Source: Candidatus Bathyarchaeota archaeon
GTDB lineage: Archaea > Thermoproteota > Bathyarchaeia > Bathyarchaeales > Bathycorpusculaceae
Assembly: GCA_963717465.1 (NCBI GenBank)
Contig: OY970340.1
Span: 352,001 to 416,000, forward strand
Length of the DNA stretch: 64,000 bases
Direction of reading: 5' to 3'
In this document: positions 22,104-28,768 of the stretch, piece by piece
Numbering within the stretch: the stretch's first letter is position 1
Layout of the letters: each line of letters begins with the position of its first letter
Program-made: the position numbers and the translations under genes
Notes under the pieces: generated by a model
What the model saw: only the letters and a program-made list of their open reading frames with translations
The model's database searches: none
What the model was told of the DNA's origin: nothing

Positions 22104-22499
22104 ATTAAGCATCCAATCTTAAAGTTTCCTTATTTTTTAATTTTTAGTTTTAACTCGTGTCTGATTTTACGTAGAGGCAACTTTGAGTGAGAATGATGAG
22201 GGAACTCCTGAAGACTTGTTGGTAGTTAAGCCTGCTACTTCTTCGGTTTGGTCTTTTTTTGGACCTTAAAGCTCAACGAGAATGCCGAGAAAGACATTTT
22301 GCCATACCCGTAGATGATCTGGAAAATCTCGGAAAACCCACGAATAGCATGGAAAATTCGTAAATCCTTAGTTCAAATGAGCTGAAAAAAGTGCAAAATG
22401 AGCTGAATGGTATTTAGAAAGCGCAAAATTTCTTGAATTCTGGGAAAATTTTAACTATTTACCAATACTGTTTTAGTTGTTTGTATATACTGTTTTTGT

Positions 22500-22723
22500 A
22501 TGTCAGATGTTGTTACTGTCAGAGTTGAGAAGTTGCTGAAGGAGAAAATAAAAAAGCACAAGATAAACGTGAGCAAGGTTGTTCGGGATGCCCTTGAAGA
22601 AGAGGTAAAGAAGCAGGAAGATGCTAACTGCTGCAGGCCATTGGTGAGGTGAAAACTATTCTGCAGAAAATTCCGAACGATGAAATTGTGAAAGCCGTAA
22701 GAGAATCAAGAGATCAAAGATGA
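22500..22723 (+). pseudogene. vapB: RHH-type antitoxin, frameshifted near 22626
   Basis: MSDVVTVRVEKLLKEKIKKHKINVSKVVRDALEEEV, then ...EIVKAVRESRDQR; ATGA overlap with the toxin. Confidence 0.75.
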
Positions 22724-23141
22724 AAAAATACCTGTTTGACGCCAGTGCACTCATGCTGCTGATAAAAGAGGCAGATGCAAATACTACTGCGAGTTAACTG
22801 CAAGATTCCAATGTCCTCGACTTAACTTTTTATGAGGTTGGAAACGCAATCTGGAAGGAAAGCGCACTAACAAAAATGTTGACAGAAGAGGATTCAAAAA
22901 GAATGCAAAAAACATTCAAACAATCCTTATGAAAACTGACCGCATAACAAGTGAACCTGACACTTTTGAGAGAATCCTTGAAATCGCACAAACAGAAAAA
23001 CTCGCATTCTACGATTCAAGCTACATCCATCATGCAAAAGAAAAAGAACTCCAACTCATAACAGAAGACCAACAACTCAAAACAAAAACCCAAAATTACA
23101 CCAACGCTCAAACCCTAACCGAACTGCTAACCCAAAAGTAA
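22720..23141 (+). pseudogene. vapC: PIN/VapC toxin pseudogene
   Basis: YLFDASA, FYEVGNAIWK, FYDSSY and LITED motifs; in-frame TAA at 22795 plus a frameshift near 22915. Confidence 0.8.
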
Positions 23142-23414
23142 ACAGAAGCAACGATGCAATGGCTAAACTTAACCTAAAAATCATGAAAGTGCTAGAGAAA
23201 TTACAGTTACATTAACAGTCTGAATTATCATCGCATCACAAAAGCTGACCTATGAATTTGATTTGCTTGATTGCTTTAAAAAAATCATCTTTTGAATAGG
23301 TCTCTTCTCTTATTGTAGATTAAAGGGAAGGTGGAAAAACGATTGATTTAAAGCATGAGTAGCGATGGTTATCAAAAGAAAAAAAACTATGCTGATTATG
23401 TACTATAATTCGCG

Positions 23415-24152
23415 TTATGCATGTAAGAGCGCACCAATAATTCCGAAACCAACACCAAATACACCGAAAATAATCACGAGGAGCAAATCCCTCCACTTAT
23501 CAACATATTCTCTTGTCGAATCAACATCATGCTTCGTAGCGAAATCAGCTGATGTTAAGGCAAATCCGGGATTCATATTGAAAGACAAGTTTTTCTGCGC
23601 ATCCGCTATGCTAAATTGAGGTTTTTCATGGAACTTGCTGTATTTTTCTTCAATTTTGTTTGTTTTGCCAACGACAAAATATAGACACCCTTCATGCCGC
23701 CCAATCTTTATTGGTTGATTAGTCATATTAAGTAATGTAGCTGTTAAATGCCCGTGAAAACCAGGATCAACATGCCCCAAAGTAAAAAAGTGGAGGCCTA
23801 AATTAGAAAATCGTGGATTCATAAAAAGCGAGCCGTCGATATCGAATGGCATGTTTATGCATTCTCTTGTCGTGAAGAAGACAAATTTTCCAGGTGGGAT
23901 TATTATTGCGTTTTCAGTGAGCTCCTCTCTAGCTAATTTTCCTATTACATCACCAACATGTAGAATCATAGCATTTCCTTCAAAATTCTTATCGTCAGCA
24001 ATTTCTGTTGGTTTGACGTCCCCCGTTGGGTCGTAAACAAGTCTATTCAAGTTTCCTTTATGTTCTGGGACTTTGCAAATCCCAGTATAATTATCGCAAC
24101 TCCAGCCTTTAATAATTAAATCTTGCATCTCGCCTTGAGTTAAATCCGACAA
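23415..24152 (-). CDS. dCTP deaminase/trimeric dUTPase-fold protein with degenerate active site and C-terminal TM helix
   Basis: IIPPGKFVFFTTRECINMP, GHVDPGFHGHL and LLNMTNQPIKI; C-terminus LLLVIIFGVFGVGFGIIGALL. Confidence 0.8.
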   Translation of the reverse strand: MSDLTQGEMQDLIIKGWSCDNYTGICKVPEHKGNLNRLVYDPTGDVKPTEIADDKNFEGNAMILHVGDVIGKLAREELTENAIIIPPGKFVFFTTRECINMPFDIDGSLFMNPRFSNLGLHFFTLGHVDPGFHGHLTATLLNMTNQPIKIGRHEGCLYFVVGKTNKIEEKYSKFHEKPQFSIADAQKNLSFNMNPGFALTSADFATKHDVDSTREYVDKWRDLLLVIIFGVFGVGFGIIGALLHA

Positions 24153-24242
24153 TAAATCACTTCCTTCGAATCATCTTAATGGTATCAGACTTATCAATTT
24201 TTTGTATTCTAATGATTTAGTGCGAAGTTATTAACATGGTGA

Positions 24243-24548
24243 ATGTGGCCAAATATCCACGGCAATCTTTTTGGTCTACCAATATGTACAATAAATCGAT
24301 CTCGAAAGGCGCTGATAGCAATGCGTTTAATAGAAACTCATCCTGAAAAGTTAAAAAGGCGAAAACTACAGAAATAATTGCCCAACAAAAAGGAATGGAA
24401 ATTAAGTGGTCTTGAAATGGGAAGCAAGCAAATCAATGAAATATCTATAGAGCTTAGTGTAATAAGGATAAATCTCATGGATAAACATTGGATTAAAGTA
24501 ATTACGGATAAAGAATCTGCAAAAATGAGGGTAATAAATGAGCAATGA
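24243..24548 (+). pseudogene. Possible decayed winged-helix protein gene overlapping the cytidine deaminase start
   Basis: One frame reads GLPICTINRSRKALIAMRLIE...K*LPNKKEWKLSG...NEQ*, with internal TAA at 24375. Confidence 0.35.
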
Positions 24549-24957
24549 GGCTTCGAGCAATAATGTTTCTACTACAGATATGAGACTTTGGCAAAAGCTC
24601 GCTGGAAAAGCGTGGGCTTGCAGGAAATATGCTCGTGTTCTAGGAAATACCAAAGTCGGCGCTGCTGTACTTTCTGATGGAAAAATTTTTACTGGGTGCA
24701 ACATTGAACATCAATTCCACAGTCATGACATTCATGCCGAAGTAACTGCGATAAGTAACATGATATCTAACAATCACAAGAGGTTACAAGCGATCGTAAT
24801 TGTTGCTGAGAGACAAAGGTTTACGCCTTGCGGGGCTTGCATGGATTGGATTATCGAATTTGGCGGAGGCAAATGCTTGGTAGGAAATCAGTCCGCCCAA
24901 AACAGCGAAATCAACATTTATCGGGCAAATGAGCTAATGCCTTATTATCCGAAGTAA
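24538..24957 (+). CDS. Cytidine/deoxycytidine deaminase
   Basis: VGAAVL, FTGCNIE, HAE and PCGAC zinc motifs, all intact. Confidence 0.9.
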   Translation: MSNEASSNNVSTTDMRLWQKLAGKAWACRKYARVLGNTKVGAAVLSDGKIFTGCNIEHQFHSHDIHAEVTAISNMISNNHKRLQAIVIVAERQRFTPCGACMDWIIEFGGGKCLVGNQSAQNSEINIYRANELMPYYPK

Positions 24958-25224
24958 AGAAACTATCCTCAATTCTTTAGGCGGGTCTATTGGCAACGCA
25001 TCCTTATTAGTTTTAAACTTTTTTCTCACTGAATTTAGATTTTCACAAACTTCCGCTGGAATTACATCATCTGATGCTTTTGAGGCTTAATTTCTGTTAA
25101 CTTATCATAAGATTAATGGAGTATATATTAATGGTCAGAGATAAGTTACAGAAGGGATTTGGGGCTTTCACATCTTTTTGACGCGCAATCCTTTAATAAT
25201 AATTCACACAATCAATTGAAAATA

Positions 25225-26031
25225 ATGACAGAGATAGCTTTCGATAATGTTGCTCATGAGTTAGGTGTAACACGTGCCTTCTTTGATAGAATCGTCAAAG
25301 ATGGGAAAGAAATTCCATTTCACAGGTCTGGGGCGAGAAATGTTGTTTACAGAACTGACCTGGATAATTATGAAACTATGAAAGAGTCACGAAAAGTCTT
25401 TCTTGGGAAAGACGTTTTTCTTAAAGCTTTGAAATTCGCCTTGGAGATAAATCTTCACGGTCATACAAGAGCAGATTTCGGTACAAAAAGGCAACGTCCC
25501 TTCATGCAAGCTGTGGAGAATTGGACACAGGGAGCACTTGCTGAATTAGCCTTACAAAAATTTATACAAGACAAATACAATCTTGAACTACAAGTTGAGT
25601 TTCGTGTTTTCGATGATGCAATAGTTGGTCAGGACATTGTTGCTGTAAAAAGAAACAAAGTGATAAATCCACCGAGAAAAAAAGTAAGCGTCAAGAGCGG
25701 CAAAACTAATGGCATGTGTTTGTTAGTTCCTACCAATGAAGTTGAAAGTAGCCAAAGATTTTCTGAGTACTATGTTTTTGTAAGAGTAGATTTTCCTGTA
25801 GACACCTTCGTAAGGTTTTATCGTGATGCCCCAGAATTTAGCGACTTTAAAGACAAGATAAGCCCCTTTGAGAATGCGATTGCATATATAGCTGGTTACT
25901 GTGAAAGGACTAACCTTTCCAAAAGAACTGTTCCTGAAATAGGTTTAGCTGATGAAGAGAGGTATGTTCAAATAGTAGGAAACTTGAAAAATCAAGATAG
26001 TGATTGGCAAAATTTTGTCAATGACCTCTAA
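25225..26031 (+). CDS. Excisionase-like HTH fused to a putative PD-(D/E)XK restriction endonuclease
   Basis: N-terminal FDNVAHELGVTRAFFDRIVKDGKEIPFHRSG; core QGALAE...QDIV...VSVKS; YYVFVRV. Confidence 0.65.
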   Translation: MTEIAFDNVAHELGVTRAFFDRIVKDGKEIPFHRSGARNVVYRTDLDNYETMKESRKVFLGKDVFLKALKFALEINLHGHTRADFGTKRQRPFMQAVENWTQGALAELALQKFIQDKYNLELQVEFRVFDDAIVGQDIVAVKRNKVINPPRKKVSVKSGKTNGMCLLVPTNEVESSQRFSEYYVFVRVDFPVDTFVRFYRDAPEFSDFKDKISPFENAIAYIAGYCERTNLSKRTVPEIGLADEERYVQIVGNLKNQDSDWQNFVNDL

Positions 26032-26450
26032 TTAAGTTTAGAGGTCTTTCCAGCTGTTGCTTTAAGAATTCTGCTGATACAGTAACTTAACCTGTGCTTC
26101 ACATCATATTCCCAAATACGTATCACAGTCCATCCTTGCTTCTTCAACTGTCGATTAACCATGCGGTCTCTTTTCTTGTTCCCTGAAATTTTCTTATCCC
26201 AATATTCAACGTTAGTTTTAGGTCTAACAAAACGTTTAGAATTACCATGCCAAAAATCAGAATCAATGAAGATAGCAAGTTTTTTCTCGGAAAAAACAAT
26301 ATCGGGCTTACCCATAATTGCTTTATCATAGACAGTGAAAACTAAGCCTTTTTTTCGCAATTCATTTATCATTATGTTTTCAGCTTTTGTGCCTGTAGAG
26401 CGTATCCTTTGCATGTTCTTTCTACGTTGTTCAGGTGTAAGATTATCCAT
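26028..26450 (-). CDS. vsr: Very short patch repair endonuclease
   Basis: MDNLTPEQRRKNMQRIRS, GKPDIVF, FIDSDFWHG and RIWE. Confidence 0.95.
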   Translation of the reverse strand: MDNLTPEQRRKNMQRIRSTGTKAENIMINELRKKGLVFTVYDKAIMGKPDIVFSEKKLAIFIDSDFWHGNSKRFVRPKTNVEYWDKKISGNKKRDRMVNRQLKKQGWTVIRIWEYDVKHRLSYCISRILKATAGKTSKLN

Positions 26451-26453
26451 TTA

Positions 26454-27443
26454 CTATCTCTTAACAGAAGGCTTAGAAAAATCCATGTAATAAGTTTCAT
26501 TATCAATTTTGTAAAAGACAACATCAGTGCGGCCATATCGTTCTAAATCTTCTTTCTTAACCAGTGCCCCTAATAGTACTTCGAGCCGTTTCCTGAAATA
26601 TATGCCAATAATGCTGTTATTATGAGGTGTATGTATGGCTTTACCATTTTGTTGTGCTCTGGTACAGATCATAACTTTATCATTATCAGTGTAAACAGTA
26701 AAATGTACTTCGACGTCAGGGAAAAAGTCAGTATTATAAACGCTTGAAGGTAACCTTATGTATGCTTGATTAGGCTCTCTGCCCTCTTCAGGTCTCTGCC
26801 CCCAATTTAACCCAGAACGTTTTGGTAACTCGCCATATCTATCAAGCAAAGAGACACGTTCAAATGGCAATCCTTCTAAGACCACACCTTTAGGAACTGC
26901 GGAGGGCTTATCTTCTACGAGTAGTCTCTGCTTGATTAGCCGCCGATAAGTTTGGTCTTCATAAATTGTAACAAGGTTTTCAGCGTCTTGATGATTGCAG
27001 TAAATTGATTCACTGCTCATATTTTCAAAATAATCATTTGCTTCTTTAAGCGGGCATTCAGTCATTAATTCTCTTTGATTACTAAAAGCAGTTTGAGTAT
27101 AGTTTGCTGAACCAGCAAAGGCTATTATCGGTTTTTCATCTTTGAGCCAGATATACATTTTTGAATGCACTGGCGGGCAATTTACGATGTAACTGCAAGT
27201 AAATACATCATTAAACTCATCCATTAATTGCTGAAAACCTCGATGATTGCTTTTAGATAACCCGTCTTGAGAACTCATGCCTAAAATTAATTGTACTTGA
27301 ACGTTTGGGTTTATACTTTTCAATGTATTTAGATGATGAAAAGCCATAGCGGCTGTCGCATAACCAGAGACTATGAGAAGTTTGTTGCAGCCTTTTTGTG
27401 CTGGTTCAATAAGTATTTTGTTAAATAAGTCGTCAATAATCAT
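26454..27443 (-). CDS. PLD-family restriction endonuclease (NgoFVII-like)
   Basis: IVSGYAT, HSKMYIW...GSANYT and SGLNWGQR...REPNQAYI. Confidence 0.85.
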   Translation of the reverse strand: MIIDDLFNKILIEPAQKGCNKLLIVSGYATAAMAFHHLNTLKSINPNVQVQLILGMSSQDGLSKSNHRGFQQLMDEFNDVFTCSYIVNCPPVHSKMYIWLKDEKPIIAFAGSANYTQTAFSNQRELMTECPLKEANDYFENMSSESIYCNHQDAENLVTIYEDQTYRRLIKQRLLVEDKPSAVPKGVVLEGLPFERVSLLDRYGELPKRSGLNWGQRPEEGREPNQAYIRLPSSVYNTDFFPDVEVHFTVYTDNDKVMICTRAQQNGKAIHTPHNNSIIGIYFRKRLEVLLGALVKKEDLERYGRTDVVFYKIDNETYYMDFSKPSVKR

Positions 27444-27467
27444 GTTCGCTATGTCAGTTTGAATTAT

Positions 27468-28571
27468 TTATAAAGTTATCTGTTGCAGTTGTAGCGGTTT
27501 CGATTGCGTAATATTTTGTAAAATTGGTGAAATGTTGGGTTCAACAGATTTATACTCTATTTCAGCAAAAGTTTTCAGAATTGCTTCGAAGACTACTTGA
27601 GCACCTTTCGGCGGGACTGCCATGCCGATCTGACGTCTGACACTTTCTTTAGATCCGCTGAAAGAAAACCAGTCGGGAAATGTTTGTAATCTTGCTCTTT
27701 CTCTATTAGTTAATGCTCTGTTTTCTTTCCAATGATACATATGTGTTCCACCGCCACCGCTTCCCGTAACAGTGTATGCGGGTTTCTTTGGATCTAACCG
27801 TTTGTATAGTTGACTTATTTTGGCACCGTTGACCTTAAGTCTTAGATGTTCAGGTAAATTGGCTGTGAAAACGTTTTCGCCTGCTTTAATATACTGTAAT
27901 CGTTCAATGACATGCTTTGCCTGCTTGGTTAACTCTTGGTTTTTTGCATCGGAAGGTATCGGCGGGTTTTTTAACGCTGTCTTGCATGTTACTGGTGTAT
28001 TGTTTATCGGAGCCGGAACTTTAAAGATTAGAGATAGATCTCTTCTTATCCCAACAATTATTATTCGATGCCGTGATTGTGGAACGTTGTAATACTCAAA
28101 CTTATAGAGGTTAGGTACAATATTGTATCCTGCATCAGCCATTTCTTGCAGGATGACTTTTAGTGCTTTTCCGTCATTTGCATTTCTTAATCCAGCTACG
28201 TTTTCAGCAAGAAACCATTTAGGCTGAAAGTGTTTTAGCGCTTTAATACAGTACTCATAAAGCTGTCCATAAATGCCGTTGAAACCTTTTTTCTCGCCAA
28301 CATCGCTGAAATCGTTGCAGGGAAAACCGAAGGCGAGAGCATCAGCTGAAGGAAGCTGATTCATATCAAGGTCTGCTACATCACAGCAAATTACACTATT
28401 GCTACTAATGTTTTTGCGGTATGTGTTGCAGGCATCTTCGTCATAATCATTCGCCCAAACTGGATTTATGGAAAAATCGGTTGAGCCTTCGGTGACCTTG
28501 GCTGATATTGCGCCGAGGGCTAATCCACCTGCGCCGTTAAATAATTCGCCTAGTCTGAAGCTCATGGTCAC
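27468..28571 (-). CDS. dcm: DNA cytosine-5 methyltransferase
   Basis: FNGAGG, GFPC, ENV, QSRHR, RERARLQTFPD and QIGMAVPP; TRD SGGGGTHMYHW. Confidence 0.95.
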   Translation of the reverse strand: MTMSFRLGELFNGAGGLALGAISAKVTEGSTDFSINPVWANDYDEDACNTYRKNISSNSVICCDVADLDMNQLPSADALAFGFPCNDFSDVGEKKGFNGIYGQLYEYCIKALKHFQPKWFLAENVAGLRNANDGKALKVILQEMADAGYNIVPNLYKFEYYNVPQSRHRIIIVGIRRDLSLIFKVPAPINNTPVTCKTALKNPPIPSDAKNQELTKQAKHVIERLQYIKAGENVFTANLPEHLRLKVNGAKISQLYKRLDPKKPAYTVTGSGGGGTHMYHWKENRALTNRERARLQTFPDWFSFSGSKESVRRQIGMAVPPKGAQVVFEAILKTFAEIEYKSVEPNISPILQNITQSKPLQLQQITL

Positions 28572-28768
28572 CGTATCCCCTTTGTACGTAACTCTTATTT
28601 AAACCTAAGTTAGAATCTGATGTTGAGATCTGAATTTTACCGAATATCCCATTCTTGCGACTATTTCTGCAGGCTAAATTTTACTAAATTCGTAAAAAAT
28701 AATATAAAAATCGGAAAATTTAAATATTATATCTTCATTTATCTTCCCAAACGTGAGGAATCCAGAAT

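Follow-up and report, generated by a model that had tools for sequence, protein, structure and literature searches.

What does a protein of the dCTP deaminase (Dcd) fold do in an archaeon when it has lost its catalytic residues, carries a membrane helix and lies beside an intact cytidine deaminase (CDA)? The question is raised by a 64,000-nucleotide stretch of a Candidatus Bathyarchaeota archaeon genome (assembly GCA_963717465.1, contig OY970340.1, positions 352,001 to 416,000; hereafter the window, to which positions without a locus prefix refer). Here a Dcd-like protein of 245 residues is encoded on the minus strand (23415..24152) and an HAE-type CDA family protein of 139 residues on the plus strand (24538..24957), the two genes diverging from an intergenic region of 385 bp (24153..24537). 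An earlier interpretation, the sequence-only reading, had taken the pair for a candidate nucleotide-based defence module in which the deaminase makes a signal that the Dcd-fold protein senses, with pyrimidine pool depletion or sanitation as the alternative. The analysis described here confirms the observation and bears out the interpretation in part. The Dcd-like protein appears to add a new branch, which we call DCD-TM, to the proteins of the Dcd/dUTPase fold and a new accessory module to 5-methylcytosine (5mC) islands, and we propose that it functions in the disposal of 5-methylated deoxycytidine nucleotides.

Both open reading frames (ORFs) are present where they had been placed, and the minus-strand protein has the fold that had been proposed for it. 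It matches the Pfam DCD family PF22769 at 40.2 bits (cut-off 27); it reaches 54.7 bits against the dCTP-deaminase equivalog TIGR02274, under the 92.8 cut-off, and 15.7 bits against the dUTPase model TIGR00576 (cut-off 102.55), with no match to PF00692. The AlphaFold2 model, computed with 29 family sequences, has a predicted local distance difference test score (pLDDT) of 88.4 and a predicted template-modelling score (pTM) of 0.73, and its best Foldseek matches in the PDB are the Dcd or Dcd-Dut enzymes of M. tuberculosis, B. halodurans, E. coli and M. jannaschii, at probability 1.0 over ~190 columns. The Pfam and Foldseek matches together place the protein in the homotrimeric Dcd/dUTPase beta-barrel fold, the trimer itself being predicted by kinship.

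In the HMMER alignment to M. tuberculosis Dcd-Dut, MNPRFSNLGL stands opposite GKSSLGRLGL and GHLTATLLN opposite GHITLELSN, and Pro113, Asn117 and Thr139 take the places of the catalytic Ser, Arg and Glu. The C-terminus (WRDLLLVIIFGVFGVGFGIIGALLHA) is hydrophobic over its last ~25 residues and is modelled as a single long helix, residues 207-244. These degenerate motifs and the helix had been noticed before, and they characterize the whole family. A word-indexed search gave 50 relatives with identities of 40-72%, every one of them from a metagenome or a metagenome-assembled genome, and in an alignment of 29 family members both the substitutions and the C-terminal helix are kept in every sequence, with no acid in any of them at the position of the catalytic Glu (E. 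coli E138, M. tuberculosis E129). The alignment has 28 invariant columns, including Pro113, Ser116, Asn117, His127 and His175, and a family-specific insertion, W17-x-C19...C26. The Dcd-like protein is thus predicted to be a conserved, deaminase-dead, membrane-anchored member of the Dcd fold, which should be unable to deaminate dCTP.

Comparison with characterized relatives distinguishes what was retained from what was rebuilt. With dCTP deaminase and Dcd-Dut (E. coli 1xs1, M. tuberculosis 2qlp/2qxx, M. jannaschii 1pkk) the protein shares, besides the fold, the N-terminal region and the motif G-x-[VI]-D-P-G-[FY]-x-G. It differs from these enzymes not only in the three replaced residues but also in the His (His127, in GHVDPGF) that precedes the Asp in place of Phe or Trp, and in the C-terminal lid, which has given way to a conserved linker and the membrane helix; the archaeal family differs further in its added W-x-C...C...H insertion, and the window protein scores below the equivalog cut-off. 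The archaeal dUTPase of the DCD family (P45 type, 9ln0 / 8y1w) has the same fold and likewise lacks the deaminase Glu (GNLTLMLYN against GHLTATLLN). It keeps the phosphate-binding motif IRSSLAREG, however, and is a soluble protein of ~155 residues, whereas the window protein has MNPRFSNLG and is predicted to be membrane-anchored. Since the Glu-less dUTPase 9ln0 keeps IRSSLAREG, the window protein does not appear to be simply dUTPase-like.

The same combination of features delimits a much larger group. An exhaustive search returned a core of six representatives at E<=1e-30; after a steep drop comes a large cloud, 834 proteins lying within E<=1e-3. Of the cluster representatives, the nearest 150 were sorted by motif regular expression and hydropathy. 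The catalytic Glu was present in 37 proteins without a transmembrane (TM) helix and in none with one; it was lost in 62 proteins with a TM helix and 13 without, and the motif expression was unmatched in 25 with a helix and 13 without. At least 87 of the 150 are thus counted as DCD-TM representatives. The His of G-H-[VI]-D-P-G is found in 51 of the 62 TM proteins, as against 3 of the 37 canonical ones, and the [RK]SS motif in none of the former, as against 34 of the latter. We define the DCD-TM clade by the Dcd fold, the lack of the catalytic Glu, the lack of [RK]SS, the His in G-H-[VI]-D-P-G and the C-terminal hydrophobic helix. The window protein carries all five features, and scores 97 bits against a bacterial DCD-TM profile, against 40 for Pfam DCD. 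Bacterial members also lack the Glu and [RK]SS, and their TM helix is followed by a coiled coil. Because the signature is correlated across the clade (no Glu, no [RK]SS, a new His, a membrane helix), DCD-TM is best regarded as a large clade that has been neofunctionalised rather than one in decay. Matches in the ESM Atlas fell only into generic "dCTP deaminase family" clusters, and fused DCD-TM forms, sought among longer proteins, gave a single match, an ordinary long Dcd-type protein, which is weak evidence.

Could the gene instead be a decaying or housekeeping dCTP deaminase or dUTPase that has come to lie beside an ordinary CDA by chance? It is the only PF22769 match of its genome, and no trimeric dUTPase (PF00692) was found in the host genome, as this explanation would have it. 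The genomic setting speaks against it. The window is archaeal, with genes for TFB, L7Ae, S28e and L24e shortly upstream, and the host genome encodes McrA. Comparison with congeners reveals an inserted island of ~6.6 kb (22159..28753) between L24e and dapA: the spacing of these genes is ~0.6 kb in all five congeners examined and 6.67 kb in the window, and nucleotide similarity to the congeners stops at ~22105-22158 and restarts at ~28754-28766. The Dcd-like family has no match in 35 of 36 congeners, CDA was not found in any of the 36, and genes of the DCD fold (PF22769) were found in none of the five congeners G001, G003, G008, G014 and G030. The host has its own route to dUMP, through a dCMP deaminase of the ComEB type together with a ThyA of archaeal type. 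Since the Dcd-like gene is borne on an insertion, has no match in nearly all congeners and has a host equipped with these two enzymes, it is not a housekeeping replacement. The identity of 40-72% within the family, with the substituted positions among its 28 invariant columns, likewise argues against decay. Both the housekeeping Dcd and the decayed pseudogene were rejected as contradicted by the conservation and island data, and we consider the chance of either negligible.

The island edges were checked for direct repeats, which yielded only an 11-mer, probably a chance match. The sole congener with a match to the Dcd-like family, G019, encodes a distant DCD-TM-like protein of 219 residues (L003:1477-2136). 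Its gene is flanked by genes for an FAD-oxidoreductase-like protein and a methylpurine DNA glycosylase, and a DNA glycosylase is thus a neighbour of a DCD-TM-like gene in this genome as well. The McrA-bearing host genus appears to be without both Dcd-fold and trimeric dUTPase genes, judged for PF22769 from the five congeners and for PF00692 from the host's own genome.

Three further genes of the island, on the minus strand, encode a Vsr T:G mismatch endonuclease (26028..26450; TIGR00632 123.9 bits, cut-off 97.85; PF03852), an NgoFVII-type restriction endonuclease with PLD and B3-like domains (26454..27443; PF09565 145.5 bits, PF20731 121.6 bits) and a C5-cytosine DNA methyltransferase (Dcm; 27468..28571; PF00145 257 bits), the last being the one gene of the whole genome (3.05 Mb) that matches PF00145. 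Because methyltransferase, restriction endonuclease and Vsr occur together, the locus can be classed as a type II 5mC restriction-modification (R-M) locus with Vsr, and both focal genes appear to be cargo of one horizontally acquired 5mC R-M island.

The neighbours of the Dcd-like protein's own family were then considered through a metagenome scan with the archaeal family profile, which gave 23 loci. With the same profile, 18 pattern matches among GTDB species genomes and 37 among viral contigs yielded no confirmed member. The loci were located through short peptide patterns and are a sample that includes near-duplicates (the pairs L017/L018, L019/L020 and L022/L024), so that the independent observations are fewer than 23; neighbours were counted by profiles across all stop-to-stop ORFs, the ORF calling being otherwise crude. 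CDA is a neighbour in none of the 23 loci. The recurring neighbours are an HAD-IB phosphatase (14 loci), Dcm (13), an HhH-GPD glycosylase that is a short MutY/Mig-like protein (13), Vsr (3) and an Ndt-like enzyme (3). At least one of these scores >=60 bits in 21 of the 23 loci, the exceptions being L015, with only a 36-bit HhH match, and L025 (2.4 kb), with none of them. In the closest relatives (67-72% identity) the glycosylase, Dcd-like, HAD and Dcm genes lie in this order on one strand and the Dcd-like and HAD genes overlap; a second archaeal subgroup has (Dcm, Vsr,) HAD and Dcd-like in succession and, after them, a small protein with two TM helices, and ThyX is a neighbour in L022/L024. 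The partner set in the window lineage thus resembles a pattern of non-orthologous replacement, in which the Dcd-like gene and Dcm would be constant, T:G repair would come from either Vsr or the Mig-like glycosylase, and nucleotide catabolism from HAD, the Ndt-like enzyme or CDA. Remnants of HAD, HhH-GPD and Ndt genes, sought in the island by tblastn, gave chance-level matches only (best E 0.063).

Some further features of these archaeal loci are worth recording. The small two-TM protein has no Pfam family and is encoded directly downstream of the Dcd-like gene at L022:4194-4604, L023:1648-1986, L024:4193-4603, L026:8726-9064 and L027:2212-2577; in L017/L018 a different TM protein, of 72 residues, is encoded just upstream. 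At L013:6490-9356, near the Dcd-like operon, an ORC-CDC6-like gene (PF24389) adjoins a PRTase-CE gene (PF24390), and ORC-CDC6-like genes are found again in L009, L022 and L024.

The second focal protein is, as had been stated, a divergent but intact Zn-dependent CDA. It scores 58.3 bits against PF00383, and 71.4 against NF004064 (cut-off 74) and 65.5 against TIGR01354 (cut-off 113.65), both under the equivalog threshold. Its Zn motifs, H66-A67-E68 and P97-C98-G99-A100-C101, are invariant in the subfamily, with a His in place of the first Cys ligand, and a nucleoside-binding GCNIE (GCNxE) at residues 53-57 aligns to that of solved CDAs. The protein thereby shows the Zn-binding [CH]-A-E and P-C-x-x-C and the G-C-N-x-E motifs of homotetrameric Cdd. 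The subfamily is 50-69% identical across bacteria and archaea and shares H-A-E, PCGxCMDW and an invariant C-terminal LMPxYP; its members are named merely "cytidine deaminase family protein" in the sources.

A scan for this CDA in one genome per species gave 46 loci. DCD-TM is present in ten of them, from several phyla, and adjoins CDA in all eight for which the gene order was examined (L054, L055, L056, L058, L067, L071, L075 and L092). Dcm accompanies seven of the ten CDA loci with DCD-TM and five of the 36 without, and Vsr six of the ten (one at only 27 bits) and three of the 36. In L054 the genes for Dcm, Vsr, an NgoMIV restriction endonuclease, DCD-TM and CDA are tightly packed on one strand, which appears to be the gene set of the window island in an unrelated bacterium; in L067 a GmrSD type IV enzyme adjoins the pair. 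The expectation that Dcd-fold proteins with a TM helix would recur beside deaminases thus held for the bacterial CDA loci and failed for the protein's own family.

These counts bear directly on the signalling model, in which CDA would make a deaminated pyrimidine signal, the trimeric pseudo-enzyme would sense it, and the C-terminal helix would perturb the membrane and lead to abortive infection. A ligand-binding fold joined to one TM helix, the small TM partners of some relatives, the recurrence of the pair in 10 of 46 loci and the defence-island context would all suit such a model. However, its proposed signal producer is missing from every locus of the Dcd-like protein's own family, and the alternative partners, HAD and the Ndt-like enzyme, are degradative and not signal-generating. 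The CDA itself retains the nucleoside-type GCNxE site of housekeeping CDAs, is paired elsewhere with unrelated STAND proteins and has no evident trigger or regulator of its activity. Nothing indicates a signal-producing enzyme or a sensor-effector logic, and we regard this model as improbable.

The broader claim of a defence module held in part. The R-M and defence island setting is as described, but PADLOC-DB v2 (2023) holds no family for the Dcd-like protein, CDA, five bacterial DCD-TM proteins or the HAD partner. Pyrimidine deaminase genes in defence islands are also a feature of the anti-phage nucleotide-depletion deaminases (dCTP deaminase defence, AvcD); these are kinase- or P-loop-fused zinc deaminases, whereas the Dcd-fold protein of the window is predicted to have no deaminase activity at all.

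DCD-TM also occurs away from CDA. The bacterial DCD-TM profile matched 3 of 401 genomes of one phylum, the seed genome included, and CDA was found in none of the annotated loci, cellular or viral, retrieved with this profile. The two new cellular loci (L105:5081-10348 and L106:6429-10571) combine DCD-TM with a 5-hydroxymethyldeoxyuridine (5-hmdU) DNA kinase, an M78 peptidase and an ORF of ~250 residues; L105 has in addition a helix-turn-helix (HTH) gene, a dNMP kinase and a ThyA-like gene, and L106 MazG_C. They resemble clusters for thymidine hypermodification, with a CapH/CapP-like pair as regulators. A scan of viral contigs gave 26 loci. Seven 186/P2-like contigs (L109-L115) have an integrase, an ORF of ~260 residues and one of ~257 residues in a common order. 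Pfam annotation of L109 identifies CI, integrase, DCD and ThyX (e.g. L109:4326-7568), the other contigs having been compared by ORF order, and the DCD-TM sequence features were confirmed in L109, L113 and L115. The arrangement in such prophage contigs, with DCD-TM (260-267 residues) and then ThyX following the CI repressor and the integrase, looks like a moron. In L107, a contig with a portal gene, DCD-TM adjoins ThyA.

Thymidylate synthase homologues occur beside the CDA and DCD-TM pair as well. Three such loci have a divergent ThyA-like gene (L056:6399-7358, L058:5124-5981 and L088:4986-5888), whose products score far under the ThyA equivalog cut-offs. In the alignment these three proteins and the ThyA homologue of L107 (L107:6768-7610) have an Asp at the equivalent of E. 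coli N177, while the ThyA-like protein in the 5-hmdU cluster of L105 keeps the Asn. In a recent preprint, an Asp at this position is the criterion for dCMP-directed ThyA homologues, and many phage PF00383 deaminases encoded beside such homologues prefer 5-methyl-dCTP (5mdCTP) or 5-hydroxymethyl-dCTP (5hmdCTP) (10.1101/2024.12.05.627091). Because of the Asp, C5 modification directed at dCMP is predicted for the homologues of L056, L058, L088 and L107.

The rest of the island agrees with the flanks described in the sequence-only reading. On the low-coordinate side of the Dcd-like gene, on the plus strand, lie an intact gene for a vapB-like ribbon-helix-helix (RHH) antitoxin of 50 residues (22500..22652; CcdA and RHH_1 matches) and a broken PIN (vapC-like) gene (22721..23141). 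The sequence itself shows the break: the N-terminal frame from 22721 stops near 22796, and the open C-terminal fragment (22929-23141) has a PIN match of E 8.7e-4, under the Pfam cut-off. Downstream of CDA, and before Vsr, the plus strand encodes a protein resembling restriction endonucleases (25159..26031; PADLOC REase_II 8.3e-14) with a weak N-terminal match to an excisionase-type HTH (TIGR01764, 21.6 bits, below the 28.8 cut-off). A homologue of it is found in L016, beside Dcm, the glycosylase and the Dcd-like gene.

What these contexts of DCD-TM have in common is chemistry at C5 of pyrimidines. The makers of modifications encoded near it are Dcm, dCMP- or dUMP-directed ThyA homologues, ThyA, ThyX and the 5-hmdU kinase, and the enzymes of pyrimidine nucleotide or nucleoside catabolism or conversion are CDA, HAD, the Ndt-like enzyme, dNMP kinase and MazG. 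Because of this common chemistry and the non-orthologous replacement of partners, we favour the interpretation that the DCD-TM module is a "care package" for cytosine methylation, which would dispose of 5-methyl-deoxycytidine nucleotides and nucleosides; we put it forward tentatively, at rather less than even confidence. DCD-TM would bind, and perhaps hydrolyse, a 5-substituted deoxycytidine nucleotide, for example 5-methyl-dCTP or 5-methyl-dCMP, freed from Dcm-methylated DNA, and a catabolic partner would then complete the disposal. In the window this partner would be CDA, turning 5-methyl-deoxycytidine into thymidine; the archaeal relatives closest to it would rely on an HAD phosphatase or Ndt-like enzyme instead. 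This is near to the pool sanitation that had been offered as the alternative to signalling. Operons with methyltransferase and mismatch-repair genes fit sanitation better than signalling, while the function itself is one that we infer.

The proposed module would run parallel to the T:G repair enzymes found in the same islands. Vsr and Mig-type T:G glycosylases are classical accessories of C5 methyltransferases, offsetting a side effect of 5mC, and DCD-TM resembles them in being encoded beside Dcm. They act on DNA mismatches that arise from 5mC, whereas the role proposed for DCD-TM lies at the level of the free nucleotide or nucleoside. The logic of keeping 5-methyl-deoxycytidine nucleotides out of the dNTP pool also resembles the eukaryotic clearance of epigenetic nucleotides. 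Eukaryotic CDA acts on modified deoxycytidines, and DCTPP1 is linked to 5-methyl-dCTP in the passages available of PMC4491611. DCTPP1, however, has a MazG-like fold, belongs to other organisms and is not membrane-anchored. A wider version of the proposal, which we hold with somewhat greater doubt, is that DCD-TM proteins are a class not recognized before, tethered to the membrane and acting as receptors or enzymes whose ligands are C5-substituted pyrimidine deoxynucleotides. Joined by CDA, HAD or Ndt partners, they would clear "epigenetic nucleotides" from prokaryotic cells by a pathway co-evolving with the methylation of cytosine in DNA, and the phage and prophage copies may control which pyrimidine enters DNA. 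Such a pathway would be the microbial counterpart of DCTPP1/CDA/DNPH1.

Several observations weigh against the care-package interpretation. Pool sanitation does not account for the membrane anchor, for the extra small TM partners (5 + 2 loci) or for the coiled coil beyond the TM helix in bacteria. There is no invariant Arg or Lys in either the archaeal or the bacterial alignment, and because, in addition, the phosphate-binding motif II ([RK]SS) is gone, binding or hydrolysis of a triphosphate by DCD-TM is doubtful. Nor does DCD-TM always accompany Dcm, as the 186/P2-like contigs with ThyX, the phage contig with ThyA and the 5-hmdU-kinase clusters demonstrate. AIPR, ORC-CDC6-like with PRTase-CE, and GHKL ATPases are among the neighbours in the archaeal loci. 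Finally, in 27 of the 46 CDA loci a STAND NTPase of ~900 residues is encoded directly upstream of CDA on the same strand, and pairing with a STAND NTPase is a hallmark of defence systems. These NTPases differ in their N-terminal domains, one having PNP_UDP_1 and another a DUF676/LmuA-like esterase, and STAND with CDA looks like an undescribed two-gene system. The STAND gene is sometimes split into parts of about 300 and 650 residues; examples of a STAND gene next to CDA, from the set L049-L094, are L049:2671-5475 and L060:3255-6011.

With the same chemistry but another beneficiary, the pair would be a metabolic second line of defence of the R-M system, destroying the 5-methyl- or 5-hydroxymethyl-deoxycytidine nucleotides made only by cytosine-substituted phages, which escape type II restriction. 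A sensor would be superfluous, since the host can do without these nucleotides. The location of the pair within R-M islands is consistent with this, as are the GmrSD enzyme in L067, the STAND partners of the CDA subfamily, the AIPR and ORC-CDC6-like/PRTase-CE genes close by in archaeal loci, and DCD-TM with ThyX by the integrase in the 186/P2-like contigs (ThyX being annotated in L109). PF00383 deaminases selective for 5mdCTP and 5hmdCTP exist, moreover: the phage enzymes of the mSCD-B5 type share the Pfam family of the window CDA, occur in association with thymidylate-synthase homologues directed at dCMP, and have a preference for these two substrates, but they are dCMP-deaminase-like and act on triphosphates and single-stranded DNA, whereas the window CDA is of the tetrameric type with GCNxE, its substrate being predicted (10.1101/2024.12.05.627091). 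On the other hand, the operon of the closest relatives holds a methyltransferase and a mismatch glycosylase, which are genes of self-care and not of defence, and some operons include a dCMP-directed ThyA-like gene that would itself produce the modified nucleotide. The membrane helix is left unexplained here too, and neither DCD-TM nor CDA has a PADLOC model. We consider a metabolic defence of this kind unlikely.

The membrane helix and the lost residues could also mean that the Dcd-like protein is a non-catalytic scaffold or regulator, a trimer that, at the membrane, tethers or gates enzymes of pyrimidine nucleotides such as CDA, HAD, Thy enzymes and kinases, or that couples them to export of the nucleoside. 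Loss of both catalytic and phosphate-binding residues from a strictly conserved fold, the differing but always pyrimidine-directed enzymatic partners and the small membrane proteins adjacent in some loci would agree with such a role. Yet nothing favours physical contact between the proteins, and the new invariant residues P113, S116, N117 and H127 cluster in the former active-site motifs, suggesting that a ligand site was retained. We judge a pure scaffold to be improbable, and return to the care-package interpretation as the one that we prefer.

A search confined to open-access full text brought up no account of a Dcd-like protein anchored in the membrane, or of such a protein paired with CDA or with a C5 methyltransferase; the thymidine-hypermodification paper PMC5889632 likewise gave nothing relevant on dCTP, dUTPase, transmembrane or deaminase. 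The clade is a large uncharacterised branch of the dUTPase/Dcd proteins whose site has been remodelled and which carries a membrane anchor, and it gives studies of ligands and structure a definite target. Practical use of the HAE-type cytidine deaminases is conceivable if they share with some phage PF00383 enzymes a preference for 5-modified cytosines. Should the role prove to be anti-phage instead, R-M-linked defence would gain a new component in this module. If the care-package interpretation is correct, prokaryotes that methylate cytosine would be doubly protected, by repair at the level of DNA through Vsr and Mig and by a safeguard at the level of nucleotides against the recycling of 5-methyl-deoxycytidine, a problem so far discussed mainly for mammalian cells.

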